Positions 3,305-27,927 of a stretch of DNA of 32,000 bases are shown here, one piece after another. A program made the translations under genes and the position numbers. The notes beneath the pieces are model-generated. The model was not told the origin of the DNA. It was given only the letters and a program-made list of their open reading frames with translations, and made no database searches. Positions within the stretch are counted from its first letter, which is position 1; the number at the start of each line of letters is the position of its first letter. Source of the DNA: Casimicrobium huifangae (GTDB lineage: Bacteria > Pseudomonadota > Gammaproteobacteria > Burkholderiales > Casimicrobiaceae); contig NZ_CP041352.1 in the NCBI RefSeq assembly GCF_009746125.1, forward strand, positions 367,847-399,846, written 5' to 3'.

Positions 3305-3388
3305 CAAGGCGGCGGCGAGCATCGCCGCCACCCGCCCGCTGGCCACGATCACCGTTGTCCGGCAACACAGTTTTTGAGGGGGAACACC

Positions 3389-10585: not shown

Positions 10586-10630
10586 GGCGTGCGACGAGGG
10601 TTTGACTTATCCGAAGATACGGTGACGACC

Positions 10631-11068: not shown

Positions 11069-11365
11069 ATGATGTCACGCATCCCAAACCTGCTGGACAC
11101 AAGTGCAGCGTCTGTGCGCTCATGGTTTCAATCATTGCACGACAAGGGACTACTGTACTGTCTCGATGACGATCCGGTATCTCTGGTTCGCATTGACAAC
11201 AATGAAAGGCTGTTCTCCGACGCGGCAGCGCTCGAAGTCAGCGTGACAACCAGCCGCATACTGGATTCACTCGGAGACCGGGCGCACGACATTGCCCTGG
11301 ATGTGCTTCGCCGCACTTTTCTCACCCCTCAAGAATATTCGCTCGCGAACATCGCGCGTGGTTGA
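11069..11365 (+). CDS. Hypothetical protein, first gene of the vsr-dcm operon
   Basis: Track ORF 11018..11365. ATG 11069 is preferred (GAGGAG 9 nt upstream). 98 aa with no recognisable motif. The stop overlaps the vsr GTG start by 8 nt. Confidence 0.45.
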   Translation: MMSRIPNLLDTSAASVRSWFQSLHDKGLLYCLDDDPVSLVRIDNNERLFSDAAALEVSVTTSRILDSLGDRAHDIALDVLRRTFLTPQEYSLANIARG

Positions 11366-11849
11366 TGTTGTCGACGCGGCTACGCGAAGCCGCATGATGG
11401 CAGGGATCAAGTCGCGCGACACAAAGCCCGAAGTGCTGGTTCGCCACGGCTTGCACGCGCGTGGCTTCCGGTATCGGTTGCAGTCGGGCGATCTGCCCGG
11501 CAAGCCTGATGTTGTCTTGCCGAAGTGGCGCACCGTTGTATTCGTGCACGGTTGCTTTTGGCATTGGCACGGGTGCGCATTGTCAAAACTACCGGGCAAC
11601 AATGCGGCTTTCTGGCTTAAGAAGCTTGACACCAATCGACATCGCGACGACTACGTGAAGCGTCAGCTTCTTGCCGAAGGTTGGCGCGTTGCGGTCGTGT
11701 GGGAATGCGCTACGCGTGGCGCGCGTGCAGCCGTTGCAGTACCCCGCGTACTCGACCAGCTCGCGCAGTGGATCCGCGCATCAGGTCGATCGAGGTTTTT
11801 CGAAATAGGCAACGCCACTGTTGCCCGGATGGAGACATCGCCGCGATGA
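11358..11849 (+). CDS. vsr: Very short patch repair endonuclease Vsr
   Basis: VVDVVDAATRSRMMAGIKSRDTKPE..LPGKPDVVLPKWRTVVFVHGCFWHWHGC...FWLKKLDTNRHRDDYVKRQLLAEGWRVAVVWECA aligns along its length with E. coli Vsr (MADVHDKATRSKNMRAI...FTHGCFWHHHHC...VWEC). The start is set at in-frame GTG 11358 by that alignment. Confidence 0.9.
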   Translation: MVDVVDAATRSRMMAGIKSRDTKPEVLVRHGLHARGFRYRLQSGDLPGKPDVVLPKWRTVVFVHGCFWHWHGCALSKLPGNNAAFWLKKLDTNRHRDDYVKRQLLAEGWRVAVVWECATRGARAAVAVPRVLDQLAQWIRASGRSRFFEIGNATVARMETSPR

Positions 11850-13414
11850 CGATTGATGTCATTGACCTGTTTGCAGGTCCGGGTGGTCTTGGCGAGGGGT
11901 TCGCTTCACTTGATGAGGGGCGCAGATTCAAGATTGCCGTCTCCGTTGAGATGGAGGCCAGCGCACATCAGACGTTGATGCTGAGAAGCTTCTACCGTCA
12001 TTCGCAAGGGGATCAGCGTGCACTTCAGGCGTACTACAACTATTGCAACCGCAGCGATGCTCCGCACCCTCGCGAGCTTCATCCAGCGCTCTGGCGTCAT
12101 GTCGAAGATGAAGCTCGTCAACTGACGCTCGGTGTAGAGCGGGACAACAACGTTCTGCGCCGGATTCTGGACGAGCGAAAACTTGATCCTGACAGAACGA
12201 TAGTGATTGGCGGACCACCTTGCCAGGCGTATTCGCTGGTTGGCCGTTCAAAGAATCAGGGCACCGCGGGTTATGTGGCCGAGGATGACCATCGCCATTT
12301 CCTCTACCGCGAATACCTGAAAATCCTGAATCACACACAGCCTGCCGCGTTCATCATGGAAAACGTGAAAGGCATACTGTCGTCAAAGGTCGGCGGGCGA
12401 CGAGTTTTTCACGACATCCTGCGCGACCTGTGTCACCCGGGGAGGGCTCTACGCCGTCCCATCGACGAACAGGGAAATGGCTATCGCATTTGTTCGCTGG
12501 TTTCACCCACGTTCTACGCGGAAGGTATGGACCCGTCCGCTATCAATGCCAGCGACTTTGTTATCAAGGCGGAAGAATATGGCGTGCCACAAGCTCGCCA
12601 CAGGGTAATTCTTCTTGGTATTCGCAACGACCTGGCGCACAAGGCGATCGACCTGTTGCGCACGCGTCCCCGAGTCTCGGTGCGCTCTGCGATCGCCTCG
12701 CTGCCGCCGCTGCGAAGCAGATTGAGCTCAGGTGATGATGCTGCAACGTGGAGTAGAACAGTCAAAGGCTTGGTGCTGGATCAGGCGAAAGATGCGGCGA
12801 GAAAGGGATTGGACGACCTGAGCAAGCACCTGACGGCCTGCCTTCATGGGATAAATGGCGGCTTGCCAACCGGCGCTCTACGTGTTGCATCGTATGTTCC
12901 GCCCGTTGCGCAGGACGACGTTGACAAATGGTCTTGTGACAGCCAGCTATCTGTCTGGTTGAACCATGAAGCGCGTTCGCACATGAAGTCGGATTTGGGG
13001 CGATATTTCTTTGCAGCCGCCTTCGGCGAGAAGTTTGGGAGATCACCGAAAGGTCACACAGACTTTTGTCTTGAGGGCCTGTCGCCCAACCACGCGAATT
13101 GGACGACCGGAAAGTTCGAGGACCGCTTCCGGGTGCAGTTGTACGACCTGCCTGCGACAACAGTTACCAGCCACATTGCCAAGGACGGGCACTACTTCAT
13201 TCATCCCGACCCGACGCAGTGCCGTAGTCTCACGGTTCGCGAGGCGGCCCGCCTGCAGACGTTTCCGGACAACTACTTTTTTCAGGGTAATCGGACACAG
13301 CAGTACCACCAAGTTGGCAATGCTGTGCCGCCTTTGCTTGCTCTCGGCATCGCGACGACGGCAGCCCGATTTCTAGCAAATCGCACTGCGGCTGGACGTG
13401 GGTATGTGGCCTGA
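11846..13414 (+). CDS. dcm: DNA (cytosine-5)-methyltransferase
   Basis: ATG 11846 overlaps the vsr TGA (ATGA). C5-MTase motifs: I VIDLFAGPGGLGEGF, IV GGPPCQAYS, VI FIMENVKG, VIII YGVPQARHRVILLG, IX REAARLQTFPDNYFF, X QVGNAVPPLLA. A long variable region lies between VIII and IX. The track ORF start at 11681 is an upstream extension inside vsr. Confidence 0.92.
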   Translation: MTIDVIDLFAGPGGLGEGFASLDEGRRFKIAVSVEMEASAHQTLMLRSFYRHSQGDQRALQAYYNYCNRSDAPHPRELHPALWRHVEDEARQLTLGVERDNNVLRRILDERKLDPDRTIVIGGPPCQAYSLVGRSKNQGTAGYVAEDDHRHFLYREYLKILNHTQPAAFIMENVKGILSSKVGGRRVFHDILRDLCHPGRALRRPIDEQGNGYRICSLVSPTFYAEGMDPSAINASDFVIKAEEYGVPQARHRVILLGIRNDLAHKAIDLLRTRPRVSVRSAIASLPPLRSRLSSGDDAATWSRTVKGLVLDQAKDAARKGLDDLSKHLTACLHGINGGLPTGALRVASYVPPVAQDDVDKWSCDSQLSVWLNHEARSHMKSDLGRYFFAAAFGEKFGRSPKGHTDFCLEGLSPNHANWTTGKFEDRFRVQLYDLPATTVTSHIAKDGHYFIHPDPTQCRSLTVREAARLQTFPDNYFFQGNRTQQYHQVGNAVPPLLALGIATTAARFLANRTAAGRGYVA

Positions 13415-13784: not shown

Positions 13785-15857
13785 TCACAAACCGATCTGA
13801 AATCCTGCCAATTCCAAGCGTTGACGAATCTGAAGAATCGCAAACGCTTGTCGTGAAGTTGGAATGCGCCCAGCTGAACCAGCCAGCATCAACAGTTGAT
13901 CTTCCTTGGGCGTCAGCTCGTTACTCTGGATGCCCCAATCGCGCAATTTGCGCCAATTTGATGCCTTGTAGTTCATTACTTCTGTAATTGCCGCAATGTC
14001 CGAATCGATGCGTGCAACCCCAATCGCATCTTCTTTGCGCTGCAATTCATCCGCCTCGGGTACTAGTTCTGCAGCAAATTCTGATATTAGTGAGATTCGC
14101 TGCTGATGGGCACGCTGCCATGCTAGCTCCTTCTTGCACCACTCGGTGACGTTCTCCAACCCCTGTTCGGGAGCGGTAATGACCGAATACATTGCGCGAG
14201 CGATAACCTTTAGCTGAGCGGAAAGCGCTGGAGAGATCGCTTGCGTGCGCCAGATGGACTGGACATTCAACGCGTTACCTGCGCCCTGTTCAGCAATCAT
14301 TTGCGCCAACTTTGCAATCGTGAAAGTGACGATGTTTGCGCGGTAACCTCCGTCATACCAGTCCGTTTCAGCGGGAATAAGCTGCTCCAACTCTCGGAAC
14401 ACGATGGTATGGCCCACCGATGACTTAAAGAACTCGTCGTTGAACTGCAGCGGCCTGCGCTGCCACTCTTCCACGACGAACTTGCTGTAGACGTCGAAGT
14501 TCTTCTGCGCACCTTTGCTGACTTCATGCGGCAACTGCCGCCACGAGTTCTCGATCTTTGCTAGGTCCGTTTTCGTGATGACCTGCCGCCTCGGATTATC
14601 GGACTCGAAACGAAGCTTCTCAGCGGGACTCATCTTCGATGTCTCAATGCGGTACTGACCTTTTGCGCGCTCGTAGAACCATGTTGTTGGCCTCTGCGAC
14701 CCGGGTCTTGGTGGAGCTTTGATCCGCCTGGACAGCTCCTCCATCTTGCGGTGAAAGGCGTGATTTGAGAAAAGGTCGGAATCAGAGACCTTGGTCTGCC
14801 GGTTCGCGTACTCAGAAATCTTGGGAATCAGGTCCGCTGACCTATCGGTATCGACAACGGACAGCTTCATCTGTACGAAGATCCCGTTGAGGTCTGCGCC
14901 ATCCTTTCGGCGCGCGAGAGCAAGGGATGCCGTGGTCTGCCCGCCGTTCACGATCTGAAGGTCCGTCGCAGCAAGAAGTCTCGGACCGCCTGGCGTGTCC
15001 TGTGTTTCAACCGACGTGGCCGTCGCGGCAATTCCGTTGTTAAAGGCAAAAAACATTTCCGGGCTCCGAAGGATCGTCTCCCGGATTGCCTTGTTCACCC
15101 TCACCGCTTTGCCGAGAAAACTTCTTACATTCCCCTCAAGAAGTCGGCTGCCGTATTCCTCGTACATGCGTGCCAAGGTCTCGCCGGGTAGCACGCAAAG
15201 GTAGCCGCTGTACTCTGACTGGTTGAGGCTCGCCTTGAGGCAGGGAATCCCGCCTTCGACTAGGCCGCCGAAGTCGACTGTTAATGCCTCGCGCCCGGAT
15301 CGCGACGAGAGTACATCATGAAAACGGACAATATCCCAAATGTGGAACTCGGCTGGAATTCCGTCAACGCTTTGCTCTGGCCAGTCGCGTATCCGATCGC
15401 TCAGGATGCCGTCGGTGGCCAAGTAAAAACGCAGCCTCGTGATGCTTGGTTTATGCGTCTGCAGGAGGGAAAAGAAGTCGGACGCAGGATGGTCATCTGC
15501 CGAGAGATGATCGTCGTTTCTCGCGAACGCTTCCTCGACGAAGGAAACAGGTTTGGAGAAGATCGCCTTTGCGATAGTTTGAGTCAGTGTGAATGGCTGC
15601 TTTTCGCCCCCGAACTCAGCGATGACGATTCGCAGGGATCCGTCTGCTTCGTCAAATGCATATCCGTCAATGCCGAGGCTTCGTCTCCTCGCCCCAAATC
15701 CGCGATACGGACAGGGCACGAAATCAATGAGCTCCTCCGCCTCCTCCAGCATTTGTCCAGCCACGGAACCGAAGCCGGCTTCGCGATCTCGTCCCCCAAA
15801 CACATCTGCAGCGCGGGCAATTACTTCATCGCGAAATGCCCCCAAGTACTCTTCCAT
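13785..15857 (-). CDS. AIPR (abortive infection phage resistance) family protein
   Basis: 690 aa. The N-terminal layout is typical of AIPR proteins (IDGYAFDEADGSLRIVIAEF..TLTQT..AIF; IPAEFHIWDIVRFH). The central region has the FNNGIAATA and IVNGGQTT motifs. Convergent with dcm and divergent from the five-gene operon. Confidence 0.75.
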   Translation of the reverse strand: MEEYLGAFRDEVIARAADVFGGRDREAGFGSVAGQMLEEAEELIDFVPCPYRGFGARRRSLGIDGYAFDEADGSLRIVIAEFGGEKQPFTLTQTIAKAIFSKPVSFVEEAFARNDDHLSADDHPASDFFSLLQTHKPSITRLRFYLATDGILSDRIRDWPEQSVDGIPAEFHIWDIVRFHDVLSSRSGREALTVDFGGLVEGGIPCLKASLNQSEYSGYLCVLPGETLARMYEEYGSRLLEGNVRSFLGKAVRVNKAIRETILRSPEMFFAFNNGIAATATSVETQDTPGGPRLLAATDLQIVNGGQTTASLALARRKDGADLNGIFVQMKLSVVDTDRSADLIPKISEYANRQTKVSDSDLFSNHAFHRKMEELSRRIKAPPRPGSQRPTTWFYERAKGQYRIETSKMSPAEKLRFESDNPRRQVITKTDLAKIENSWRQLPHEVSKGAQKNFDVYSKFVVEEWQRRPLQFNDEFFKSSVGHTIVFRELEQLIPAETDWYDGGYRANIVTFTIAKLAQMIAEQGAGNALNVQSIWRTQAISPALSAQLKVIARAMYSVITAPEQGLENVTEWCKKELAWQRAHQQRISLISEFAAELVPEADELQRKEDAIGVARIDSDIAAITEVMNYKASNWRKLRDWGIQSNELTPKEDQLLMLAGSAGRIPTSRQAFAILQIRQRLELAGFQIGL

Positions 15858-15972
15858 TCAGAATGCCCCCAAAATGACCCTAAGCTCAGAGCCTGTTCGT
15901 CACAATTGAAAATCAGAATTCTCAAAAGTCTCGAGTCAATCATAATTCGATCCACTATAAAAATAGGGAGGA

Positions 15973-16995
15973 GTGGCTGGACCTGTGCTCATTGATGTCG
16001 ACGAAATATTGATCGCGCTACGGCGCAGCGACTTGGCTCTAGTAACCGGTGGCAAGTCGATTGCACCTCCTCCATGGGTCGATTGGCTTGTGTGGCTTGG
16101 TCAGTGGATGCGAGTCCAGGCTGAGCTTGAAGGCCGACGGATAGCGGTCGTTAGATTACCAAGTAGAAGGCTCGCCGCCGCGTTCGTTGCTATCGGTTCT
16201 GTCTTCGCATCTGCACGACTTCATGACGAATCGCTCGACTGGGATGGTTTACGGAGCCTCGCTCCCGGAACGAAGGTATTCTGGCGAGAATCTGCATCTG
16301 GCAAGACCGTGCGCCGGGCGGGGATCGCGGTCGGCGTAAGCCAGATTGACGGTGGTGACTTCTTGGAAGTCACTGTCGACACCCAAAGGAGAACTCAGCA
16401 AGGAAAGCGCTTTTTCGCCAAATCTGCGGCGTTGTCCTACGGGATAACCCTCGGAGCGGTTAGCGCGGTTGCCGATGAGCGACTGGCCTGTGCAGAGCGC
16501 TGTATCAACGCGGCATTGACGGATGCTCCTCAGGGTTGGATTCGGTCGCCGGCCGTCGAGTGCAACATCATCACCGAGCGAGCCTCATTTCTGGGTGATA
16601 TTGAGAACCTCGTCATCCGCGTTGCCGGAACAGTGGGCGCGGCATGCTCTGATGTTCTGGCCATAGCCGACTCCGGCGGGCGATCACATGGCAAGACAAG
16701 ATTGGCTTCAGCGCGAAGCGATGGGGTGCTCGACGAGTCGGGCTTCGTCACGATTCTTGACGGCGCGGCCGCAGCACTTCGCTTGAAGGACTCCATCGCA
16801 CGCAGCGTCGTGGTCCTGCTTGACCAGGCCGAGTACGACGAAGAGGTCGAGCAACTGCTTCTGACTTTCTTGGGCTATTCAGTCGATGCTGGCATCGACC
16901 CACCCTCGAGCGGAGTCATGGCGCTGCCGGAGAGTGTCGAGTGCTTCATCTTCGGTCTGCCTCTAGAGTCTCAGTCAAACTATGAAGCGCACTAA
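15973..16995 (+). CDS. Hypothetical protein (340 aa), gene 1 of the five-gene DrmAB-containing operon
   Basis: Long ORF on the same strand as the following four genes. GGGAGGAG RBS at 15966-15973. The start is GTG 15973 or in-frame GTG 15985, which has better RBS spacing. I recognise no motif. Confidence 0.6.
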   Translation: MAGPVLIDVDEILIALRRSDLALVTGGKSIAPPPWVDWLVWLGQWMRVQAELEGRRIAVVRLPSRRLAAAFVAIGSVFASARLHDESLDWDGLRSLAPGTKVFWRESASGKTVRRAGIAVGVSQIDGGDFLEVTVDTQRRTQQGKRFFAKSAALSYGITLGAVSAVADERLACAERCINAALTDAPQGWIRSPAVECNIITERASFLGDIENLVIRVAGTVGAACSDVLAIADSGGRSHGKTRLASARSDGVLDESGFVTILDGAAAALRLKDSIARSVVVLLDQAEYDEEVEQLLLTFLGYSVDAGIDPPSSGVMALPESVECFIFGLPLESQSNYEAH

Positions 16996-18655
16996 GAAAG
17001 CCACTAACGGCCAATTGATTCGTCCGACCATGGGTGCGTCTGACATGCTGGCTGCGACAGGGCCAACCGAGTCGATCCTAGAGCTCGTGGCTACTCACCA
17101 TGTAAACGCAACCAGATGCCAAACGGCAAGAGTAGTGATCGACTTCCCGCCGATGCGAGAAGTTATGCGGGCGTGCTCATCGATTTTTGCTGAAATTGAT
17201 CGAGAGGATCCCCTGCAACGCGCGATCTCGCGAGACGTGTGGCTTGTGAAGTCGTCGCTAATGCTGACCGCTCTACCATTCAATGATTCGCGCCTAGGCC
17301 TAGACGAATTGCTGAATAGACTAGCTACCGCCACCGAAAGCGTTCCGGCAATCCGATCTCCAGTCAGGGCTTTGACTGGCTTTGCACAACACCTAGCCTC
17401 AGAGCGGTTCAATCCAAAGCGAGAGCGCTTGATGGAATTGCTGCAAACTTCAAAGCTTGGCGGCCGTCCTGTTGGACTTCTCGCAAATATTTGCGGGTCT
17501 CCGACCCCAGGCTGGCCAATCTCATTAGAGGTGGAAAGCGACTTCGGCGCCTCAGAGTTGGACCTCATTCGACGAAGACGACAGGTGAAGAGTTCGCTTT
17601 ACGAGCTATTAGTTATTCCGGGCAATCCGTGGTTCGCTTCCAGAGGCCTTCTGTTCGATCTGCTCTATGGCGGAAGAACTTCGGAGGTCGTCGTCGTTGC
17701 GTATCGATCAGAACCGGTTTCTTTGCCGATCCCTAGCGAAATGCCGAGAGATCGCTATTTCCCACCAACCCGACGCCAGCCGAAGCAAACTGTCGGGGAG
17801 AGCGAGCAGGGCGACAGCGCTCAGCTAGACAAATGGGCTAACGAGTCATTCTGGTCATCGATTCACGCCCAGCAGGCTGACATTACTCCGACCTCGGACA
17901 GAGACGTCACCACGGACGCCCAGTTCGTATTGTTTGCCGATGGGAGCGGCGCATTCCTCCCGGCAGATGGACGCGTTGTCGAGGTATCGGAGCTGTTTGA
18001 GACGGGAGCAAATTTCGACGTCACGGAAGACAAGCTTCCCCGGGTATCGGTCAGGGACCTTGAGGAAGGTGATCTTGTAATGCTCAGGCTTTCGGGTAGC
18101 GGAAACTACCTCGACGATGTTGCGGACTCGCTCATTCAGCGAGCCGGTGAAAATGCTCTGCGCCATCGTGCGCTGGAGTGGAAGGATATGCTCCACGATG
18201 TGATTAATCGCCAAGGCGAGGGCGTAGTGGCGATGAAGCTGCGAAGCCTTGGCGTCAGACTCCGGTCCCCCCAGTATCTTTGGGTTTGGGCGGGTGACGC
18301 TGTCATGGCGCCCCACGACCGACAGACGTTTCACAGTTTGATCACAACCATCTGGCAACTGGGGCGCCACACTGGCGACGGTGAGCCGGAAGCCTACGCC
18401 AACGCGCGATGGGACGACATGGAGCGCCTTAAGGCGTACCATCATAAGGCTGGTGTCGAAATTCGCGCTGCGCTGCTAACCCGAGTGCGGGGCTTGGTTG
18501 CCGAGCGCCGCCGCATCGACACGATGGAATCGATCGAACTGCCGGGGGTAGCAGCCGGTCGGATGGGCCTTCTACGCGTGGCGGCAGTCGACACAAAGAC
18601 TAGAAGGGTGTCGGTGTCTAGGCTGTTTCATCTGGGAAAGGTGAAGGCGGCGTAG
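16982..18655 (+). CDS. Hypothetical protein (557 aa), gene 2 of the operon
   Basis: ATG 16982 overlaps the end of gene 1 by 14 nt. The stop TAG 18653-18655 overlaps the next start by 1 nt. No recognisable catalytic motif. Confidence 0.6.
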   Translation: MKRTKKATNGQLIRPTMGASDMLAATGPTESILELVATHHVNATRCQTARVVIDFPPMREVMRACSSIFAEIDREDPLQRAISRDVWLVKSSLMLTALPFNDSRLGLDELLNRLATATESVPAIRSPVRALTGFAQHLASERFNPKRERLMELLQTSKLGGRPVGLLANICGSPTPGWPISLEVESDFGASELDLIRRRRQVKSSLYELLVIPGNPWFASRGLLFDLLYGGRTSEVVVVAYRSEPVSLPIPSEMPRDRYFPPTRRQPKQTVGESEQGDSAQLDKWANESFWSSIHAQQADITPTSDRDVTTDAQFVLFADGSGAFLPADGRVVEVSELFETGANFDVTEDKLPRVSVRDLEEGDLVMLRLSGSGNYLDDVADSLIQRAGENALRHRALEWKDMLHDVINRQGEGVVAMKLRSLGVRLRSPQYLWVWAGDAVMAPHDRQTFHSLITTIWQLGRHTGDGEPEAYANARWDDMERLKAYHHKAGVEIRAALLTRVRGLVAERRRIDTMESIELPGVAAGRMGLLRVAAVDTKTRRVSVSRLFHLGKVKAA

Positions 18656-20436
18656 TGGCCAGGATGATCCCGCCTCTAGTAGCAGGCGATGCGCCCAAGG
18701 GCGAAAGGCAGTTGTTCGCCAAGCTGCGTGACGATCCCAAGACAGGGGACTGGCTGGTACTTCATTCCTTCGACATACGCCGACACGTTGCGCGGGCCGA
18801 AGGCGAGGCGGACATGCTAATCGTGGTTCCAGGCCAAGGCGTGCTCTGCGTCGAGGTCAAGGGATGCTGCGTAGTTCGAGAGGGCGGGCTCTGGAAGTAC
18901 TCCTACGACCCACCCAGGACGTCCACGGTGGGCCCGTTTCGCCAGGCTAGTCAGGCCGGACACTCCATCCGGCAATACCTTGCGCAGAAGGATTCATCGC
19001 TTGGATCGCTGTTGTTCCACTCGGCAGTTCTCTTCACCGAAGTGGACTTCACCGAAAAGTCCCTTGAGTGGGAGCCGTGGCAGGTCATCGGGCGTAGCGA
19101 CTTCGTGCGGCAGCCCATCTCCACGACCGTGACCCGCGTGCTGGAGGCGGCGCACTCCCAGTGCCGCTCTAGAAAGCCGGTGCCAGCCTGGTACGGAAGT
19201 CATAGTCGGCCATCTGTTCGGCAGCTGGACTCCATCCTCAGACTGTTGCGTCCGGACTTCGAATACGTGGTTTCCGGACGAAACGACGTGGAGCTTGCCG
19301 AAGCTGCAGTACGCAAGTTCACGGAAGAGCAGTTCGAGGCGCTCGATCATCTCGAGGACAACCACCGGGTGGTGTTCAAGGGACCCGCCGGAACTGGCAA
19401 GACGTTCCTCGCAATGGAGGCAGCCCGAAGGGCTGTGCGTGACGGGCAAAGCGTGGCGCTCCTGTGCTTCAACAGCCTTCTCGCAGCATGGCTGAAGCAC
19501 GAGACCGCAGTGATTGCGCAGGAAGCGCAGGCGCGATCGCTGCCCTTCTACGTCGGCAGCCTCTCCGGGCTCATGCGCAGCGTTGCAGACATCGACGTTC
19601 CGCCAGAGCCCGACAGCAAATTCTGGGAGGCTGAACTTCCCATGCGGGCGGTGGATGCCCTGCTGGCCGACGGGCGCGGCACGCCGAGCTTCGATCTGCT
19701 GCTTGTTGACGAGGCGCAGGACCTACTGTCTGACGCGTATCTCGACGTCATGGAACTTCTGTTGGGCGGTGGTCTGGCAAGCGGCCGCTGGGCGCTGTTC
19801 GGCGACTTCGAACGGCAGGCGATCTACGCGGACAAGGGTGCAGCTCTGGGACTCGAAAGGCTCCGGAGCCGGACCGCGGACAGCGTTTCAACGTACCGCT
19901 TGCGAGTCAACTGCAGGAACGCAGTCAGGATCGCGGAAGCGGTCACCATTACCAGCGGACTATCCCCTGGATACAGCAGGGTTCTCAACGATGCGGAATC
20001 AGCGGACGTTGAACCTGTCTTCTACCGCAGCGCTTCCCATCAAGGAGAACTGCTGCTGGCGACCATCGCCAGACTCCTCACATCCTTTGCTCCGTCGGAG
20101 ATAGTCGTGCTCTCCATGCGAGCCGACGCATCGTCGTGCGTCGCCCGGCTGGCACGTGAACAGGCCGGCTGGCACTTTGCTTCCTGTCGCGAAGAGGCGG
20201 AGGACGGAGTCTCGATACGGTACGCCAGCGTCCATGCGTTCAAGGGGCTGGAGGCTCCGGCCGTCGTGCTGACGGACATTGATGGCATCGGCGACGAGCA
20301 GGCCAAGTCCCTTCTCTACGTGGGCATGTCCCGTGCACGGGTCAGGCTGCACATCCAGATGAACGAGCGACTTCGTTCGAGCTATGACGCGATGCTGACG
20401 GTCGGCTTGAAGGCAGCGCTTGGGAGGTCTACCTGA
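18655..20436 (+). CDS. NERD-domain nuclease-like / SF1 (UvrD-like, AAA) helicase fusion protein (Nhi-like architecture)
   Basis: N-terminal NERD pattern: GERQLFAKLRDD...WLVLHSFDI...EGEADMLIVVPGQGVLCVEVKG. Walker A VVFKGPAGTGKTF (19381-19404). Walker B LLLVDEAQDL (about 19699-19725). C-terminal UvrD_C-like segment: SVHAFKGLEAPAVVLTDI...LLYVGMSRARVRLHI. An alternative ATG start is at 18664. Confidence 0.8.
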   Translation: MARMIPPLVAGDAPKGERQLFAKLRDDPKTGDWLVLHSFDIRRHVARAEGEADMLIVVPGQGVLCVEVKGCCVVREGGLWKYSYDPPRTSTVGPFRQASQAGHSIRQYLAQKDSSLGSLLFHSAVLFTEVDFTEKSLEWEPWQVIGRSDFVRQPISTTVTRVLEAAHSQCRSRKPVPAWYGSHSRPSVRQLDSILRLLRPDFEYVVSGRNDVELAEAAVRKFTEEQFEALDHLEDNHRVVFKGPAGTGKTFLAMEAARRAVRDGQSVALLCFNSLLAAWLKHETAVIAQEAQARSLPFYVGSLSGLMRSVADIDVPPEPDSKFWEAELPMRAVDALLADGRGTPSFDLLLVDEAQDLLSDAYLDVMELLLGGGLASGRWALFGDFERQAIYADKGAALGLERLRSRTADSVSTYRLRVNCRNAVRIAEAVTITSGLSPGYSRVLNDAESADVEPVFYRSASHQGELLLATIARLLTSFAPSEIVVLSMRADASSCVARLAREQAGWHFASCREEAEDGVSIRYASVHAFKGLEAPAVVLTDIDGIGDEQAKSLLYVGMSRARVRLHIQMNERLRSSYDAMLTVGLKAALGRST

Positions 20437-23400
20437 TGTCGCCCCTCGACAAGAACCTAGCGAACAGAGAGCAGATGCTCGCGCGACTGCGAGCGGAGAT
20501 TGTCGGTCCGGATCCGGCGGGGAAGCCGGTATCACTTGGCGACAAGCAGGCCATGACCTGGGAGGAGTACCGGATCCCGCAGATGCAGGCGGACGGGCAG
20601 GAGATCGTCTGGCAGGACCCGCCGACGAAGCGATTCGGTGCTGGCATCTTGTTTCCGCTGGGCGCCACCGAAGAGGCGATCGTCAACGCGACCGAGGCGG
20701 ACGAGGTGGTCCCGCTCACTTCACCCGATCTCGCGCCGCCTGGACAGCAGCCGGATGAAGAACTTGCGGCGAGGGAAAGGGCGCCATCGTATGGTGGACC
20801 TGCCGATGACGCAGAGGAAGAGGACGTCACACTCGCCAACGCCTTTCGCCCGTCCGCCATCGGACTCAGCTTCCTGGCCGATCTTGCAGCAGAAACCAAC
20901 GGGATCGTCGTCGAATTGGTCAACGTCGGACGCATAGGTCTGGAGCGAACCGTCGAAAGTCCTTGCGGCTCGTACCTCCCGTTGACTCTCCATCTTGGAG
21001 GGGCGGTCGGTAAGCAGCCGACGCCACGCAAGGTGTGGCTGCGCAAGCCGGTACTTGATGACCAGGGCAAGGTGCCTGCGGTTTCCATCGCCGCCAAAGA
21101 GCTGCTCAACGCCGCCAAGCCCCTGCGGCACCCGATCGGACCTGCCGCCCTTGGTCTGGAACTTGTCGTAGTCTCGCGGACTTGGCGTTCGGCTCCAACC
21201 AGTGGGCATCGGCTCCTGACCGTGTCCGTCGCGAACAAGAAGAGGGCCAAGGAGACGGAACTTGATTCCCTGTGTCTGTTCCAGGCTGGAATCCGGGTCA
21301 GCGGTGCGAGCGGAAATCAGTGGATCGACGCGTATCCCGAGAACTTGATCGCGGATTTCCAGGACGATGATCCGCTTGCAGACGAGAACGTCAATCGTGT
21401 ACTGTACAGGGAGAACCGGACCTTTGCCATCGGTCATGGATGTGGCGCCGACTGGATCAGTGGCCGCCCGCAACGTGTGACGACGGTGTGGTCGGATGTC
21501 CTCCCGGTATTCGAGACGCCAGCTACAAGCGCAGATCTGCAGATCAAGGGCCCCGGAGGCCGATCGCAGTCCCTGCGCGTCAGCATGCGTCTGCTGGCGG
21601 GCCTTCAGCCAGGTGATGACGGGCTTGGCGACGTCGACCGGTTGCTGCAGGAATACGAGGGCTGGATTGCTGCGCTTGACTCGAAGGTTGCCACCATTGC
21701 CGAAGGGTACCGGCCGACAGCGACTGAACTGATCAGGAAGTGTCGCGAGTGCGCTGCTCGGATTGCGGACGGGCTTTCGATCTTGCGACAGGCTGGCGCT
21801 CAAGGCGATGTGGCACGCAAGGCGTTCAGACTTGCAAACCACGCCATGCTGGTTGCGCAACTCCGGTCACGGCAGGAGCTGCGAGTGCCAGATCGCGACG
21901 CAAACAGCCGGCTGACGTGGTCCCGCCCGATCGCGGTGGTCGATCCCGCGGTTCCCAACGAGAGACAGGGCTTCTGGAGACCATTTCAGATTGCCTTCCT
22001 CCTCATGTCACTGCGGGGCATCTGCGACTCGAGCCATCCGGACCGGAAGGTGGTGGATCTCATCTGGTTCCCGACAGGTGGTGGCAAGACCGAGGCGTAC
22101 CTCGGTCTGACGGCGTTCACCGTCTTCTTCAACGCGCTGTCGGGGACTGCCAATGGGGGCGTCGATGTCCTCATGCGATACACGCTGAGGCTGCTCACTG
22201 CCCAGCAGTTCCAGCGCGCAGCAACGCTGTTCTGCGCAATGGAACAGCTGCGTCGCTGGGACGTGGTGGCTCTTGGCAATCGGCCGTTCCGGATCGGCCT
22301 GTGGGTAGGCAGCGCGGCCACGCCGAACAAGCGTGACGATGCCGTGGAGAAGCTGAAGGCGCTGCAGCGGGACTCCGACGCCGAGAATCCCTATGTGCTT
22401 CTCAGGTGCCCATGGTGCGCGGCGAAGTTCGGACCGCATGAGGCAGCCTCATCGCCCGTTCAGCGAAAGGCAGGCCGCGGCCGCCAATCCTCGGGCGGAC
22501 ACGTCTACGGTTATGCAAGGGAGAGAGGACCGTCGGGAGACACCGTCGTCTTCAGATGCGGAGATCCCGGGTGCGAGTTCGGCGGCATGCCCGGTCCGGG
22601 AACGCCCCCACTCCCGATCGTGGTCATCGACGAGGATCTTCTCGATGCTCCGCCCAATCTGCTGATCGGGACCGTCGACAAGTTCGCGATGCTTGCGTGG
22701 ACTCCTGCGGCGCGCAGCATCTTCGGACTGGATGACTCGGGTCGCCATCGCGGCGCACCGCCAACGCTGGTCATCCAGGACGAGCTGCACCTCATCTCCG
22801 GGCCGCTCGGCTCGATGGTTGGCGCCTACGAAACCGTCATCGAGGCGCTGTGTGTCGATCCTCTCGGGGGGATGGTCCTGCCGAAGATCGTTGCATCGAC
22901 GGCGACCATCAGCCGGGCGCGTGAGCAGATCGCAGGGCTCTACGCGCGTTCAGGGGTCATGCTGTTCCCGCCTTCGGGCCTCGATGCAGCCGATTCCTTC
23001 TTCGCACGCGAAGCGGTCGACGACGATGGCAGACCCAAGCCAGGTCGGCTCTATGCCGGGGTGCTGGCACCCGCGCATACGTCGCTTCAGACTTCAGAAG
23101 CGCGGGTGTTCGCCACGTTGATGCAGCATGCTTCCCTGCTCGAGGGAGAGCCACGAGAACTGGATCCATGGTGGACATTACTCGTGTTCTTTAACTCCCT
23201 GAGAGAGCTCGGCGGCGCCGCAACGCTGTTCACTGCAGACACGCGCGAATACCTCAAGGTCATCCTGAATCGCCACGGTATCGACTACGGCAGGATCCGC
23301 CAGCTCTTCCATGTCGAAGAGCTGACCAGCCGGATCCGAGGAGACCACATCCCGCGCCTGCTGGAGCGACTCGAGGTCCCTGTCACGGTCCGGGAGGGAG

Positions 23401-24119
23401 CCGGCGCCGCTATACCCAGTCCGGCGCCTATCGACGCCTGCCTTGCGTCGAACATCATCGAGGTCGGAGTGGACGTCCCGCGTCTTTCGCTGATGGCGAT
23501 CGTCGGACAGCCCAAGACCACGTCCCAGTACATCCAGGTCTCGAGCCGGGTTGGCCGGGACCTGGACAAGCCAGGTTTGGTGGTGGTGATCTACGGTCAG
23601 ACGAAGCCCAGGGACCGCAGCCACTACGAGAGGTTCCGCTCGTACCACCAGCGCCTGTATGCGCAAGTCGAACCGACCAGCGTCACCCCGTTCAGCCCAC
23701 CAGCAGTCGATCGTGCTCTCCACGGTCTCGTTGTGGCACTGGTACGACAACTGGGACGCAGAGGCCATGAGGCGGATACGCCCGACCCGTTCCCGCTGAC
23801 TGCTGGCAGCGACCTGCGGCTGAAGGTCGAGGAAGTGATCCGTGATCGAGTGCGTTCCATTGCGCCCGATGAGGAGGCTTCCGTGATGGCCAAGCTCAAG
23901 CTCAGGCTCGATCAGTGGAGCGCCCGGAAGCCGGCCGAATACGGTGATTTCTCGAAGACGCCAGAGCACCCGCCGCTGATGCATCCTGCCGGGCGAACCG
24001 AGCTTGCGCAGTGGGAGGGTCGCAGCTGGGCAACAATGTCGTCCCTCCGCAATGTCGACGCGAGTTGCGAGGCGGATCTCACGGCTCAGTACAACAACAT
24101 TCCCGAGGCAAACCAATGA
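20436..24119 (+). CDS. DrmA-like SF2 DExH helicase (DISARM-type large helicase)
   Basis: ATG 20436 overlaps the upstream TGA by 1 nt. Motif I WFPTGGGKTEAYLGL (22074-22091 encodes TGGGKT). Motif II VIQDELHLISGP (DELH at 22779-22790). Motif III ASTAT. Motifs V/VI NIIEVGVDVPRLSLMAIVGQPKTTSQYIQVSSRVGR. Long N-terminal region of about 540 aa. C-terminal SLRNVD. Followed by a separate DUF1998 gene, as in DISARM. Confidence 0.8.
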   Translation: MSPLDKNLANREQMLARLRAEIVGPDPAGKPVSLGDKQAMTWEEYRIPQMQADGQEIVWQDPPTKRFGAGILFPLGATEEAIVNATEADEVVPLTSPDLAPPGQQPDEELAARERAPSYGGPADDAEEEDVTLANAFRPSAIGLSFLADLAAETNGIVVELVNVGRIGLERTVESPCGSYLPLTLHLGGAVGKQPTPRKVWLRKPVLDDQGKVPAVSIAAKELLNAAKPLRHPIGPAALGLELVVVSRTWRSAPTSGHRLLTVSVANKKRAKETELDSLCLFQAGIRVSGASGNQWIDAYPENLIADFQDDDPLADENVNRVLYRENRTFAIGHGCGADWISGRPQRVTTVWSDVLPVFETPATSADLQIKGPGGRSQSLRVSMRLLAGLQPGDDGLGDVDRLLQEYEGWIAALDSKVATIAEGYRPTATELIRKCRECAARIADGLSILRQAGAQGDVARKAFRLANHAMLVAQLRSRQELRVPDRDANSRLTWSRPIAVVDPAVPNERQGFWRPFQIAFLLMSLRGICDSSHPDRKVVDLIWFPTGGGKTEAYLGLTAFTVFFNALSGTANGGVDVLMRYTLRLLTAQQFQRAATLFCAMEQLRRWDVVALGNRPFRIGLWVGSAATPNKRDDAVEKLKALQRDSDAENPYVLLRCPWCAAKFGPHEAASSPVQRKAGRGRQSSGGHVYGYARERGPSGDTVVFRCGDPGCEFGGMPGPGTPPLPIVVIDEDLLDAPPNLLIGTVDKFAMLAWTPAARSIFGLDDSGRHRGAPPTLVIQDELHLISGPLGSMVGAYETVIEALCVDPLGGMVLPKIVASTATISRAREQIAGLYARSGVMLFPPSGLDAADSFFAREAVDDDGRPKPGRLYAGVLAPAHTSLQTSEARVFATLMQHASLLEGEPRELDPWWTLLVFFNSLRELGGAATLFTADTREYLKVILNRHGIDYGRIRQLFHVEELTSRIRGDHIPRLLERLEVPVTVREGAGAAIPSPAPIDACLASNIIEVGVDVPRLSLMAIVGQPKTTSQYIQVSSRVGRDLDKPGLVVVIYGQTKPRDRSHYERFRSYHQRLYAQVEPTSVTPFSPPAVDRALHGLVVALVRQLGRRGHEADTPDPFPLTAGSDLRLKVEEVIRDRVRSIAPDEEASVMAKLKLRLDQWSARKPAEYGDFSKTPEHPPLMHPAGRTELAQWEGRSWATMSSLRNVDASCEADLTAQYNNIPEANQ

Positions 24120-26239
24120 GCCGCCCTGTCAGACGGTCGCAGGCCGTGTCCCCCTTCGGTGTGGGCGCGCTTGTGGACTTCCCCGGTCCGGTGTCCCTGA
24201 TCCATGCCGGACTCGACGCGTGGCCTTTCGACGAGAGGAACCCGGCTCACCGCGAGTTCAGAGTTGACGATGAGCCGAGGCTTGCCAGGCGGCTCGGGGT
24301 CGACTTCTTCGTGCAGCCTCCAGACTTCAGGCAGGTCGAGAGAGGAGGCTCAGGAGAGGCAGTCAACCTTGGACTGAAGCTACCCTTCCTTCGCTTTCCA
24401 CTGTGGCACTCATGCCCTCGCTGCGGTCGAATGTACGAGGCTAAGTACCACCATCGGTCTCCGCCGGAGTGTGAGGGGCCTATCGGAAGCGGAGCAGAGA
24501 AGGGCAAGGCGCACAAGAAGCGGCGCGCCATACAAGTCCGTTTCGTCGCCGTATGTCGATCTGGCCATCTTCGTGACTTTCCCTGGATCGAGTGGCTACG
24601 TCTCGATCGAGCTGACTGGGATGGCGTCAGGACTGACCGCTGGCTTCGCCTGTTGTCCACGGGATCTGCATCAATTGCCGGCGTCGTTGTCGTTGCAGAA
24701 CGGCGCGACAGTTCCGGAGTCGTCGAGGTCGCGCGCGAGTCCCTCGCCGGTGCGTTCAGTGTCGAATCGAGCGGTGCCACAGCCTTCACCACCATCATCA
24801 AGCTGACATGCGACGGCCAGAACCCAGCGATTGGCCTCGGCGACGGCGGCGACGTTCCGATCGAGCCTTGCGGTCAGGACCTGAGGGCCGTGCTTCGTGG
24901 CGCGAGCAACCTCTACTTCGCCGACGTCCGGAGCTCGATTTACGTCCCGGAAGTGGAGGACAGCGGACTGCCTCAGGCCGTGCTGGATCTGCTCGAGGAT
25001 TACGCACTGAGGCAGGAACTGTTGGGTGGAGCATTGGCATCGGAGACCGATGGAACCCTGAGTGTCAGGGCAGCGGGTGCGACTCTCCGTCGCCGCTATC
25101 CGGAGTCGGATGTCAGGGCAGAGGTTCTTGCGGCAGCAGTCAACAAGCACGCGCTGCACGAGATACTGACTCAACCACGACTCATCGCTACGACCCTGGT
25201 CCAGAAGGCGAAGACCGCAGTCGACGGAAAGGTCTCGGCGGAGATCCTCAAGGGTCTGATCGAGACTGCGCAGCCGGACTGGCTGATCGACCCGAATGTA
25301 CTGGTGGAACCGGTGAATGCGTGGCTCAGGCGTCGCGAGGGTCTGGAGGCCGAGGGCGCACCGCAGCGCACGGAGGACGTCTCCGACAGGACCTACCGCG
25401 CAGAGGAATACCGCGCATTCAGTCGCGATGGTCAGGATGGGCTGCCGAAGGTCAATCTGCTCGTACGGAGCAAGCCACTCGATCGCTACAGTGATCTCGT
25501 CAGGAGGAACTTCTCGCGCGTGGCCCTGTTGGACAAGTTGCGCGAAACACGTGCCTTCGTCGGATTCAGCAGGATCTATGCAAGCTCGAACACCCCCCCG
25601 GCGCAACGCTGGAAGCTCATTTCAAGATCTCAGCAGAACTGGCTTCCAGCCGTCGTCGTCCGTGGCGAGGGCATCTTCCTAATGTTCAATCAAGAGCGCC
25701 TGGCGCAGTGGACCAGAGAGTTCGGCGAGGTGCACAAGGATCGGCTGCGTCAGGTCAATCTCAATCTACAGGCCCAGGCGCGCCGACGTCAGGTGCATGC
25801 CGATGACGCCTCGCCCGCCCTCGTGCTGCTGCACACCTTCGCGCACGTGTTGATTAGCCAGCTCGTGTTCGACTGTGGTTACGGCTCTTCGTCTCTGAGG
25901 GAGCGGATTTACTTCTCCGAGACGCATCCGCAGATGACCGGTGTGCTGATCTATACCGCCGCTGGGGATTCCGAAGGAACCATGGGCGGCCTTGTCAGGA
26001 TGGGCGAACCGGGTCAGCTCGATCGAATTATCGCCAGGGCGCTCGACCGAGCCCGGTGGTGCTCAAGCGACCCCGTGTGCATCGAGAGTGCTGGACAAGG
26101 GCCTGACAACTGCAATCTCGCGGCCTGCCATTCATGTGCCCTACTGCCGGAAACCTCTTGCGAGATGCAGAACCAGCTGCTTGATAGGGGCATGCTGGTC
26201 GGGGTACTGGACCGCCCGGAGATTGGTTTCTTCTCATGA
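24116..26239 (+). CDS. DrmB-like DUF1998 (MrfA-type Zn-binding) protein
   Basis: ATG 24116 overlaps the drmA-like TGA (ATGA); the track start at 24011 is an in-frame extension. N-terminus RRSQAVSPFGVGALVDFPG. Zn ribbon CPRCGRMY...PPECEG. FVAVCRSGHLRDFPWIEWL. C-terminal DUF1998 signature: LLHTFAHVLISQL...YTAAGDSEGTMGGLV...WCSSDPVCIES...CNLAACHSCALLPETSCEMQNQLLDR. Confidence 0.85.
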   Translation: MSRPVRRSQAVSPFGVGALVDFPGPVSLIHAGLDAWPFDERNPAHREFRVDDEPRLARRLGVDFFVQPPDFRQVERGGSGEAVNLGLKLPFLRFPLWHSCPRCGRMYEAKYHHRSPPECEGPIGSGAEKGKAHKKRRAIQVRFVAVCRSGHLRDFPWIEWLRLDRADWDGVRTDRWLRLLSTGSASIAGVVVVAERRDSSGVVEVARESLAGAFSVESSGATAFTTIIKLTCDGQNPAIGLGDGGDVPIEPCGQDLRAVLRGASNLYFADVRSSIYVPEVEDSGLPQAVLDLLEDYALRQELLGGALASETDGTLSVRAAGATLRRRYPESDVRAEVLAAAVNKHALHEILTQPRLIATTLVQKAKTAVDGKVSAEILKGLIETAQPDWLIDPNVLVEPVNAWLRRREGLEAEGAPQRTEDVSDRTYRAEEYRAFSRDGQDGLPKVNLLVRSKPLDRYSDLVRRNFSRVALLDKLRETRAFVGFSRIYASSNTPPAQRWKLISRSQQNWLPAVVVRGEGIFLMFNQERLAQWTREFGEVHKDRLRQVNLNLQAQARRRQVHADDASPALVLLHTFAHVLISQLVFDCGYGSSSLRERIYFSETHPQMTGVLIYTAAGDSEGTMGGLVRMGEPGQLDRIIARALDRARWCSSDPVCIESAGQGPDNCNLAACHSCALLPETSCEMQNQLLDRGMLVGVLDRPEIGFFS

Positions 26240-26446: not shown

Positions 26447-26869
26447 TCAAGTAAGCCATTTCATCGCAAGCGCCGCCAGCTCCATAACCTCAATGTCGCG
26501 ATAAGGGTTCAGCACCAGCAGGTCGTCGTCGCTTGAGATGATCGCGCTGGCGTTCGCTGCCAGCGCGAGCGCAAGGAACTTGTTGTCCCTGCTGTCGCGG
26601 CAATCGTTCACCGTTTCGGTGACGGCGACCATCTGAACCACGCCAGCGTAGCGGCGGACAAATTCGGCGCGGTCGGCCGCTGCGCGGTAGCGGTCGAACT
26701 TTGGCCGGGAGAGAACCTCGACCAATTCCTGCATTGTGTCGGTGGACGCTACCGCCTGATGGCGAGCGATGGCATCGCGAAATGCCTGTGCGTGCGCGGA
26801 CTGCGGATAGAGCAGCACGCCGACGAGCGTGCTGGTGTCGAATACGATGCGTTTAAGCGCGGAGCTCAT
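26447..26869 (-). CDS. PIN-domain toxin (type II TA, TIGR00305-like)
   Basis: IVFDTSTLVGVLL...MQELVEVLSRPKF...CRDSRDNKFLALALAANASAIISSDDDLL. Acidic PIN residues are present. Overlaps the upstream antitoxin gene by 17 nt. Confidence 0.8.
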   Translation of the reverse strand: MSSALKRIVFDTSTLVGVLLYPQSAHAQAFRDAIARHQAVASTDTMQELVEVLSRPKFDRYRAAADRAEFVRRYAGVVQMVAVTETVNDCRDSRDNKFLALALAANASAIISSDDDLLVLNPYRDIEVMELAALAMKWLT

Positions 26870-27122
26870 GCACGAGGTCGGTGATTTCCTTCGTGCTCAG
26901 TTCCGGCGCGTTTGGCTCGACAAATCCTTCAGGCAGGCCGTCGAGAAATGCGCCCATGCGTTGCGCCGCGAGCAGACGCAAGGCTTCCTGACCCTGCGCA
27001 TAGGGCAGGATCATCAGGGTCGGCCGCCCATGCTGCGTCACGGTCACGGGCTCGCCGCTCTTCACAATGTCAGCGATGCCGCCAAAGTTGTTTTGCACCG
27101 TACGTGATGCGAGCGTTTTCAT
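26853..27122 (-). CDS. Phd/YefM-family antitoxin
   Basis: 89 aa. MKTLASRTVQNNFGGIADIVKSGEPVTVTQHGRPTLMILPY is a typical Phd/YefM N-terminus. Lies immediately upstream of the PIN toxin. Confidence 0.8.
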   Translation of the reverse strand: MKTLASRTVQNNFGGIADIVKSGEPVTVTQHGRPTLMILPYAQGQEALRLLAAQRMGAFLDGLPEGFVEPNAPELSTKEITDLVHELRA

Positions 27123-27673: not shown

Positions 27674-27927
27674 CGCCGTCCTTCGTCGCGCAACTCGTTC
27701 ACGGTCACGCCGTCAAGCCGCCAGCCACGCGTCGCCGCGAGCAGCGCGTCGGCCGCGCGCTGCGCGGCGGCGCGGTCATGCCCGGCGTTGGCCGAGACGA
27801 GGCGCGCGACCGGCCGGCCGCGACGGGTGATGAGTACCTCGTCGCCTGCCTCCACCCAGTCGAGCAGGGTGCCGAGTTTGTTCTTGGCCTCGAAGGCGCC
27901 GATTTCATGTTGGGCAGGGATGCTCAT
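27670..27927 (-). CDS. Phd/YefM-family antitoxin (VapB-like partner)
   Basis: 85 aa. IGAFEAKNKLGTLLDWVEAGDEVLITRRGRPVARLVS. Coupled to vapC. Confidence 0.8.
   Translation of the reverse strand: MSIPAQHEIGAFEAKNKLGTLLDWVEAGDEVLITRRGRPVARLVSANAGHDRAAAQRAADALLAATRGWRLDGVTVNELRDEGRR

Follow-up and report, generated by a model that had tools for sequence, protein, structure and literature searches.

A candidate class 2-derived DISARM variant carrying a NERD-SF1 helicase in Casimicrobium huifangae

Class 2 of the defence system DISARM, as found in Bacillus paralicheniformis, has the order DrmE-DrmA-DrmB-DrmC-DrmMII (10.1101/2021.12.28.474362, PMC9252829); drmA, drmB and drmE are essential in this class, and the loss of DrmMII is deleterious (10.1101/2021.12.28.474362). 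The PADLOC definition of DISARM type II comprises DrmA, DrmB, DrmC and DrmE, plus DrmMII, with DrmC and DrmE being required. The Serratia DrmAB complex of class 1 is autoinhibited and loads onto 5′-overhang single-stranded DNA (ssDNA), and its ATPase is stimulated more by unmethylated DNA than by DNA carrying 5-methylcytosine (5mC), and V1296 has been proposed to sense the difference; DISARM can dispense with DrmC, a protein frequently missing from its loci, and its effector nuclease is undefined (PMC9142583). Definitions of DISARM were taken from later papers that restate Ofir et al. 2018. Here we describe a locus in a 32,000-nucleotide stretch of the Casimicrobium huifangae genome (contig NZ_CP041352.1, positions 367,847 to 399,846), which we refer to as the window. 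Judged from its sequence, this locus of about eight genes (11.3-26.2 kb) is rather probably a DISARM-family anti-phage/anti-plasmid system that is associated with methylation and derived from class 2. It would thus be a class 2-type DISARM minus DrmC and plus a NERD-helicase, and no categorically new system. Its features are listed below in positions of the window.

11292..11849, plus strand (open reading frame as listed): vsr, very short patch repair endonuclease
11846..13414, plus strand: dcm, C5 cytosine DNA methyltransferase, DrmMII-like
13785..15857, minus strand: AIPR-family gene, 690 aa, Pfam AIPR, divergent from g1
15919..15946, plus strand: weak promoter-like site inside the 115-nt divergent intergenic region, with 9/12 consensus matches and no excess over shuffled sequences
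15973..16995, plus strand: g1, GTG start, 340 aa, without a Pfam, NCBIfam or PADLOC match
16982..18655, plus strand: g2, ATG start, 557 aa, remote DrmE homologue (predicted)
18655..20436, plus strand: g3, GTG start, 593 aa, predicted fusion of a NERD nuclease and a superfamily 1 (SF1) UvrD/RecD-like helicase
20436..24119, plus strand: g4 = DrmA (predicted), ATG start, 1227 aa, superfamily 2 (SF2) YprA-like helicase, short form
24116..26239, plus strand: g5 = DrmB (predicted), ATG start, 707 aa, OB-CON-DUF1998/MZB protein

The five plus-strand open reading frames (ORFs) at 15973-26239 had been singled out by a first-pass annotation of the window as an operon built around DrmA and DrmB, and both the ORF list and a direct reading of the sequence reproduced them exactly, together with their four overlapping junctions. 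The genes g1 and g2 overlap by 14 nt (16982-16995), TAG 18653-18655 of g2 shares one nucleotide with GTG 18655 of g3, TGA 20434-20436 of g3 shares one nucleotide with ATG 20436 of g4, and g4 and g5 are joined by an ATGA (24116-24119, a 4-nt overlap). The SF2 motifs attributed to the fourth gene lie at residues 546 (PTGGGKTEAY), 782 (DELH), 821 (STAT) and 1037 (SRVGR). Its product matched NCBIfam DISARM_DrmAS (2.1e-256, 853.9 bits), PADLOC DrmA (5.8e-207) and chain A of Serratia DrmA (PDB 7S9V, 3.8e-149), and V1296, the proposed methylation sensor in the pivot arm of the Serratia protein, is aligned with a conserved Val, V1207 of the DrmA in the window. The g5 product scored 392.8 bits with NCBIfam NF038324 DrmB_fam (cut-off 240) and 2.2e-69 with PADLOC DrmB, and its Cys-rich DUF1998/MZB end, likewise noted in the first pass, was recovered by Pfam PF09369 (2.2e-10, 41.5 bits, cut-off 24.2). 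The predicted products of g4 and g5 are DrmA and DrmB, and the proposed core is therefore real. We also considered whether the cassette, as a relative of MrfAB/YprA, might serve DNA repair rather than immunity. Some helicases of the YprA family act in repair (10.1101/2025.09.15.676423), and Vsr is a repair enzyme; however, the best-matching models are DISARM DrmA and DrmB, the locus lies within a low-GC island with PIN toxins and AIPR, and its relatives reside on plasmids and near transposons or integrases. A repair function appears highly improbable.

What accompanies this core? With DrmB encoded directly downstream of DrmA, the locus has two of the three DISARM core components, and the third, DrmC, was not found. 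Three DrmC queries gave no match in the window (tblastn, E<=0.01), and the phospholipase D (PLD) motif HxK(4)D is absent from all six frames of the window. A scan of related loci for the same motif, which covered ORFs of at least 120 aa, recovered DrmC in the class 1 controls L017, L018 and L021, and it detected no PLD motif in any locus with the NERD-helicase. Two queries for DrmD, the SNF2 protein, were also without a match in the window (tblastn, E<=0.01), and the Pfam and PADLOC scans of the neighbouring genes revealed neither an SNF2 domain nor a DrmMI N6-adenine methylase. The first-pass statement that neither a PLD nor an SNF2 gene is present thus held. Class 1, with its DrmD and DrmMI, is not represented here, and for PADLOC type II the locus lacks DrmC as well as a detectable DrmE. 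Present in the locus is the C5 methyltransferase (PF00145) that corresponds to the class 2 component DrmMII.

Whether DrmE is also present depends on g1 and g2, the 340- and 557-aa proteins in which no motif could be named in the first pass. For g1 this description stood, in that scans against Pfam, NCBIfam and PADLOC gave no match. For g2 it did not: g2 showed a weak match to Pfam DrmE_C (E=0.0017, 18.5 bits, cut-off 27) and none to the NCBIfam and PADLOC DrmE models. A search with a g2 family profile yielded 800 representative proteins, mostly of 500-540 aa. Pfam DrmE_C was matched by 16 of 27 g2 family members, some of the remoter ones reaching 27.4-33.6 bits (cut-off 27). Some remote members also aligned from about position 285 or 331 to position 838 of NCBIfam NF038316 DrmE_fam (838 positions), with E down to 3e-19, all g2-family alignments falling under the 80-bit cut-off of this model. 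Bacillales members of about 505 aa bear the public names 'DrmE family protein' or 'DrmE domain-containing', and the PADLOC DrmE models miss the entire g2 superfamily. Because the remoter members of its family match DrmE_C and DrmE_fam, g2 is predicted to be remotely homologous to the C-terminal two thirds of DrmE (about 550 positions).

A further locus, L025, contains a single 877-aa protein in the slot of g1 and g2, directly 5′ of a NERD-helicase gene and a DrmA-like gene. This protein passes the DrmE_fam cut-off (131.5 bits against 80, positions 8-835). Residue 1 of g2 corresponds to about position 300 of DrmE, and the place of g1 matches that of the N-terminal ~300 residues in the fused L025 protein. 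We found 101 homologues of g1. The g1 gene always lies upstream of a DrmE-like gene and has homologues in the same position across phyla, with tblastn matches in several lineages; g1 and its L027 equivalent were aligned over their full length (hhalign, E=5.8e-5). Similarity of g1 to the DrmE N-terminus was sought in an NCBIfam scan of six g1-like proteins (E<=10), by comparing the g1 profile with the fused DrmE P0455 (hhalign), and with a broadened g1 profile (hmmsearch --max, hhalign), in each case with no significant match. Considering the position of g1, a 340-aa protein whose gene overlaps g2, and the fusion in L025, we see an even chance that g1 is the equivalent of the N-terminal third of DrmE.

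Structure predictions, as recommended in the first pass, were made for these two proteins. The AlphaFold2 models had predicted local distance difference test values of 88 for g1 (confident) and 78 for g2 (fair), and Foldseek searches of the PDB returned only weak matches: Hef, RIG-I and Dicer helicase cores for g2, and Mfd, CarD, Tudor-like proteins and SF1-type cores for g1. No conserved NTPase motifs were found in either the g1 or the g2 family, and sequence searches of the PDB retrieved no solved relative of g1 or g2. The models hint that g1 and g2 may form a degenerate helicase-like scaffold. The idea that the DrmE halves track methylase specificity was rejected, since the identity of g1 and g2 is uncorrelated with that of the methylase (rho 0.14-0.21).

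Canonical class 2 DrmE of ~785 aa was also sought on plasmids, using DrmA, P0356 and P0455 as queries and inspecting the neighbourhoods; this search did not retrieve the B. paralicheniformis type and returned class 1 loci, split-type loci and an 801-aa Lactiplantibacillus plantarum protein (L029). In L029 (3547-12628, L. plantarum pMK02), the gene order runs from a C5 methylase through this 801-aa protein, which is annotated as hypothetical, to a DrmA-like protein (DrmAS 861 bits) and DUF1998. The 801-aa protein stands in the position of DrmE, had no match to Pfam DrmE_C or NCBIfam DrmE, and showed no similarity to the g1 and g2 profiles (hhalign).

These results bear on whether the locus is a distinct system that has merely recruited DrmAB, with g1 and g2 functionally unrelated to DrmE and the methylase irrelevant. 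Consistent with such recruitment, g1 lacks both detectable relatives beyond its own family and relatives of solved structure, g2 stays below each of the curated DrmE thresholds, and its whole superfamily escapes the PADLOC DrmE models. However, transitive profile homology over ~550 positions ties g2 to DrmE_fam, L025 has a genuine fused DrmE in this slot, and a C5 methylase, usually together with Vsr, is found near the cassette in most loci that are long enough. We regard recruitment by a distinct system as quite unlikely. The first-pass annotation had left the choice between a new DISARM class and a distinct system using DrmAB; because the g2 family matches DrmE, L025 has a fused DrmE and the methylase is DrmMII-like, a DISARM-family variant derived from class 2 is the better-founded of the two. 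The partners of DrmAB are accordingly less foreign than had been claimed. The same annotation had named a split or divergent DrmE, coupled with a standard class 2 call, as the outcome that would undo its proposal. The first part of this came about, in that g2 is DrmE-like; the second did not, as the curated models do not return a standard class 2 system.

A further departure from class 2 is g3. Its product matched Pfam NERD PF08378 (6.3e-10, 40 bits), UvrD_C_2 (6.1e-9, 36 bits) and AAA_30, so that the Pfam searches suggested in the first pass bore out the NERD and UvrD_C_2 domains of g3 as well as the MZB domain (PF09369) of g5. The best PADLOC models for g3 were RTasNERD-Hel, which is associated with defence reverse transcriptases (3.6e-31), and the candidate 'NERD+UvrD' (6.1e-14). 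Gabija is not indicated: g3 gave only partial GajB matches (best 3.2e-11, residues 346-503), and GajA had no match among the ten proteins scanned with PADLOC, a scan outside of which the ORFs downstream of 26239 lay. The NERD ExD...ExK motif (PD-(D/E)xK type), the Walker A motif (GxGKT) and the DExQ motif of g3 are invariant in 8 lineages, and the description of the NERD-SF1 helicase as a conserved non-canonical partner of the core was thereby confirmed. Its slot is fixed between DrmE and DrmA in at least 10 lineages belonging to several phyla, with junctions that overlap or nearly abut. A sequence search of the PDB found no solved relative of g3.

Nostoc, Bacillus and other loci have the cassette in a four-gene form from which the NERD-helicase is absent. 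Among these, the distant relative L013 (9015-20970) encodes a g1-like protein, a DrmE_C-positive g2-like protein, DrmA and DrmB, and no NERD-helicase. In L013 the cassette is followed by a 509-aa ParB_N protein and a Dam-type (MethyltransfD12) methylase in place of the C5 methylase.

Is the cassette inherited as a unit? The first-pass annotation had concluded from the overlapping junctions that the five genes form one transcription and translation unit. Overlaps of this kind are a common feature of bacterial operons and are little proof alone; that the genes belong together is upheld by conserved synteny and co-divergence in other genomes, which is stronger evidence than junction overlap. The Burkholderiales comparison drew on twelve retrieved loci, whose sources are Comamonas, Rubrivivax, Limnohabitans, Acidovorax, Aquabacterium and metagenome-assembled genomes (MAGs) that are unclassified; two are duplicate contigs (L002 = L001 and L006 = L003), and the short contig L009 is binned as Anaerolineales. 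The minus-strand AIPR gene followed by g1, g2, NERD-helicase, DrmA and DrmB, together with a C5 methylase, was present in Burkholderiales at 8 distinct loci that are complete and at 3 partial loci, and the arrangement from AIPR to DrmB is kept in every fetched locus that is long enough. The homologues of g1 and g2, mostly from Burkholderiales, are all unannotated 'hypothetical proteins'. In pairwise identities across eight loci, AIPR, g1, g2, g3 and DrmB co-diverge with DrmA (Spearman 0.85-0.95; g3, rho 0.94). The fastest-evolving are g1 and g2, with a mean identity of 56-58%, compared with 78% for DrmA and DrmB. The five-gene co-occurrence that had been proposed as a check extends well beyond this order: the cassette g1-g2-NERD-helicase-DrmA-DrmB was found in Rhodococcus opacus pROB02, on a Deinococcus psychrotolerans plasmid (spanning the record origin), in CP019698, where a C5 methylase follows it and whose host we take to be a Firmicute, and in the metagenomic lineages L014, L026, L030, L031 and L032. 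These comparisons show that DrmA, DrmB, g1, g2, the NERD-helicase and AIPR are, as far as sequence can tell, inherited as one unit, with the exception of the methylase.

Several other loci met in these searches are described here in their own right. In L010 (6917-16525, a Rubrivivax MAG), the AIPR, g2 and DrmA homologues are broken into tblastn segments in different frames, which reflects either decay of this copy of the system or frameshifts introduced in a long-read assembly. L020, on a Sphingomonas parapaucimobilis plasmid, is a class 1 DISARM (DrmD, methylase, DrmA, DUF1998) without DrmC; its insertion separates cas3 from casA in a type I-E CRISPR-Cas locus. L028 (Bacillus cereus pMRY14-0105_1) shows another non-canonical DISARM-like arrangement, in which a 1251-aa AAA ATPase precedes an annotated drmA, followed by DUF1998, a 1084-aa helicase-related protein, a DUF4391 protein, a site-specific methyltransferase and a DEAD-box helicase.

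The genes to the left of the operon extend the unit beyond the five genes recognized in the first pass. The 'dcm operon', which had been set apart from the system, consists of a DrmMII-like C5 methylase gene and vsr. The dcm product matched Pfam DNA_methylase PF00145 (5.1e-45), PADLOC DrmMII as its best model (2.8e-87) and TIGR00675 dcm (135.6 bits). ATG 11846, with GGAGA placed 9 nt 5′ of it, is likely the start of dcm; the open frame runs upstream to 11681. An ATGA overlap joins the vsr stop with the dcm start, and the vsr product, whose true start is probably ATG 11301 or GTG 11358, scored 110.7 bits with Pfam Vsr PF03852 and is 49% identical to the Vsr of L001 and L014 (tblastn). The dcm gene is placed 2.5 kb upstream of the operon, with the opposite-strand AIPR gene in between; in the Burkholderiales loci the C5 methylase is found on one flank or the other, upstream of AIPR or downstream of DrmB, with Vsr alongside in most. 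Its co-divergence with DrmA is only 0.28 (Spearman, the same eight loci), and in a comparison of the window with L004, DrmA is 94% identical and the methylase only 45%.

The AIPR gene itself had been overlooked in the first pass, and with it and the vsr-dcm pair the unit comprises about eight genes rather than five. Its product matched Pfam AIPR (5.5e-96) and AIPR_N (6e-32); with NCBIfam NF041935 MzaE it scored 309.9 bits, far under the cut-off of 1050, and the Pfam and PADLOC scans found no match to other Mza components in the window. AIPR adjoins g1 in every Burkholderiales locus extending that far. In L032, an AIPR gene whose product is 41% identical to that of the window shares its strand with g1 and immediately precedes it. 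AIPR is a lineage-specific accessory component. AbiU1, AIPR and COG1479 have been grouped in a review as one family with a ParB-superfamily nuclease domain that is often linked with restriction-modification (R-M) (PMC3632139); because of this domain, the ParB_N protein of L013 may be an analogue of AIPR.

Could the region instead be a defence island of independent neighbours, namely a solitary vsr-dcm pair or an R-M-like dcm/AIPR pair, a stand-alone AIPR abortive-infection gene, a stand-alone NERD-helicase defence gene and a minimal DrmE-DrmAB? The methylase is a separate transcription unit that is swapped between loci, and AIPR is encoded on the opposite strand, is absent from most non-Burkholderiales lineages and belongs to the family often linked with R-M. 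NERD-UvrD fusions are known in other defence contexts, as the two PADLOC models illustrate, and some g1-g2-DrmAB loci do without the NERD-helicase. Such independence is, however, difficult to reconcile with the constant placement of the NERD-helicase between DrmE and DrmA or with its close co-divergence with DrmA. AIPR, moreover, co-diverges with DrmA (rho 0.92) and not with the methylase (0.37), and has been joined into a same-strand operon in the distant L032. We consider a set of independent neighbours unlikely, although less so than a distinct system using DrmAB.

Against a class 2-derived DISARM system of about eight genes, several points must be weighed. First, the DrmA of the locus falls slightly under the NCBIfam equivalog cut-off (853.9 vs 950 bits). 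Second, g2 itself lies under every curated DrmE threshold and is linked to DrmE only via intermediate family members, whereas g1 has no detectable sequence similarity to the DrmE N-terminus, so that a 'split DrmE' depends for its g1 half on position and size; the fold matches of both proteins are weak as well (Foldseek E about 4e-3 to 1e-2, template modelling score <0.3). Third, four or five related lineages carry g1-g2-DrmA-DrmB without the NERD-helicase (L013, L015, L016, L019), indicating that it is not universally required. Fourth, the methylase is outside the operon and exchanged between loci, and its functional coupling to the operon is therefore one that we infer. Finally, AIPR was seen in just two lineages, and a phenotype is known for no member of this variant.

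If the locus is such a DISARM system, how might it act? The methylase would mark the host DNA with 5mC, and Vsr would repair the resulting T:G mismatches, thereby limiting the mutational cost. DrmAB would load onto foreign DNA that is entering or replicating, at its ssDNA or 5′-overhang ends, and, as in Serratia DrmAB, unmethylated DNA would preferentially activate it. The conserved Val of the DrmA pivot arm may sense methylation irrespective of the sequence motif, which would explain the swapping of methylases. The split DrmE (g1 and g2), with its weakly helicase-like fold and no NTPase motifs, could be a non-enzymatic adaptor or sensor. The NERD-SF1 helicase could be the nuclease effector, degrading the target while translocating, a role nominally given to DrmC, and AIPR may serve as an accessory effector in some lineages. 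A more far-reaching proposal, which we put forward tentatively as something short of probable, is that the cassette of DrmE (split or fused), NERD/SF1 helicase, DrmA and DrmB forms a third, self-contained class of DISARM, accompanied by Vsr, by a C5 methylase that can be exchanged and, in some cases, by AIPR. Its NERD-helicase would be a dedicated DNA-degrading effector, its DrmE a helicase-like protein that has lost its activity and links DrmAB sensing to this effector as an adaptor, and its self-recognition independent of the methylase motif.

With respect to the surroundings of the locus, the GC content from ~10 to ~19 kb is 0.54-0.61, vs 0.65-0.74 in the left flank of the window, and this drop suggests horizontal acquisition. 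Neither an integrase nor flanking direct repeats were found at the island boundaries, and no terminator-like site was found in a search 3′ of drmB. A tRNA-Lys(UUU) gene is located at 2237-2312. It is followed by two plus-strand genes that overlap by 4 nt, one encoding a 1277-aa protein with RCC1 repeats, BACON and DUF5648 domains (3374-7207) and the other a 746-aa caspase (7204-9444; Peptidase_C14, 4.7e-36; PADLOC 'caspase' 1e-12) with a C-terminal rhodanese domain. This pair (3374-9444) may be a separate conflict or defence module adjoining the DISARM variant. The plus-strand ORF at 9653-10645 encodes 330 aa without a Pfam or PADLOC match; an imperfect direct repeat lies within it, with copies at 10086-10124 and 10152-10190 (spacing 66 nt). 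To the right of the operon, two PIN toxin genes lie on the minus strand (PIN_3, 26447-26869; PIN, 27266-27673), each overlapped by a small upstream ORF (26853-27122 and 27670-27927, respectively). A PIN gene with a small overlapping upstream ORF is the typical toxin-antitoxin layout of defence islands.

How the target DNA is destroyed and what role DrmE plays are open questions in DISARM (PMC9142583), and this variant bears on both of them. With it comes a candidate for the nuclease effector, which is as yet undefined, and it lends itself both to tests of an effector encoded in the operon and to a dissection of DrmE half by half. The exchange of methylases among co-diverging cassettes also fits the published proposal of motif-independent sensing by DrmAB. 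Specialists already expect DISARM-like systems to be diverse; a literature search, the coverage of which was incomplete, found no description of the NERD-helicase, split-DrmE or AIPR arrangement. PGAP labels on the relatives read 'helicase-related protein' and 'hypothetical protein'. Because current curated models miss the variant or call it in part, such loci are probably under-counted in defence censuses.

Among the described systems with related components, TALON (10.1101/2025.09.15.676423) resembles this locus in associating a YprA-family helicase with a NERD nuclease; in contrast, TALON has an ARMADA-like fused YprA with TPR-CSD and TBP and is largely found in Chloroflexota, and it shares none of these features with our locus. 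ARMADA type II (10.1101/2025.09.15.676423) likewise combines in one operon a YprA helicase and an SF1 (GajB/UvrD-like) helicase with an N-terminal effector domain. Its YprA, however, is a single fused protein of a Druantia-like branch, its effector is a RelE-like RNase and not NERD, and its partners are BrxHII and PglX rather than DrmE and Dcm. Our Pfam and PADLOC scans revealed no TPR-CSD, TBP, PglX or BrxHII domain, and the helicase here is of the split DrmA/DrmB type. DISARM-like operons with RmuC/ShdA (PMC10270631) provide a precedent for an alternative embedded nuclease; they differ in that RmuC is not a NERD protein, there is no helicase fusion and a link with DrmE is undescribed. The class 1 system of Serratia (7S9V, PMC9142583) has in common with our locus the DrmAB core and the Val equivalent to V1296, and it differs in possessing an SNF2 DrmD, a PglX-like N6 methylase and DrmC; the DrmA described here is the short form (NCBIfam DrmAS, not DrmAL). 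The closest resemblance is to class 2 DISARM, with which the locus shares a separate pair of a DrmA helicase and a DrmB DUF1998 protein, a DrmMII-type C5 methylase, and, as predicted for g2, a DrmE-family protein directly upstream in the same operon. It departs from class 2 in being without a PLD DrmC, in the apparent distribution of DrmE over two genes (340 + 557 aa) that have diverged under the curated thresholds, in the NERD-SF1 helicase located between DrmE and DrmA, and in the pairing of Vsr with a methylase that is extra-operonic and exchangeable, together with the attachment of AIPR.

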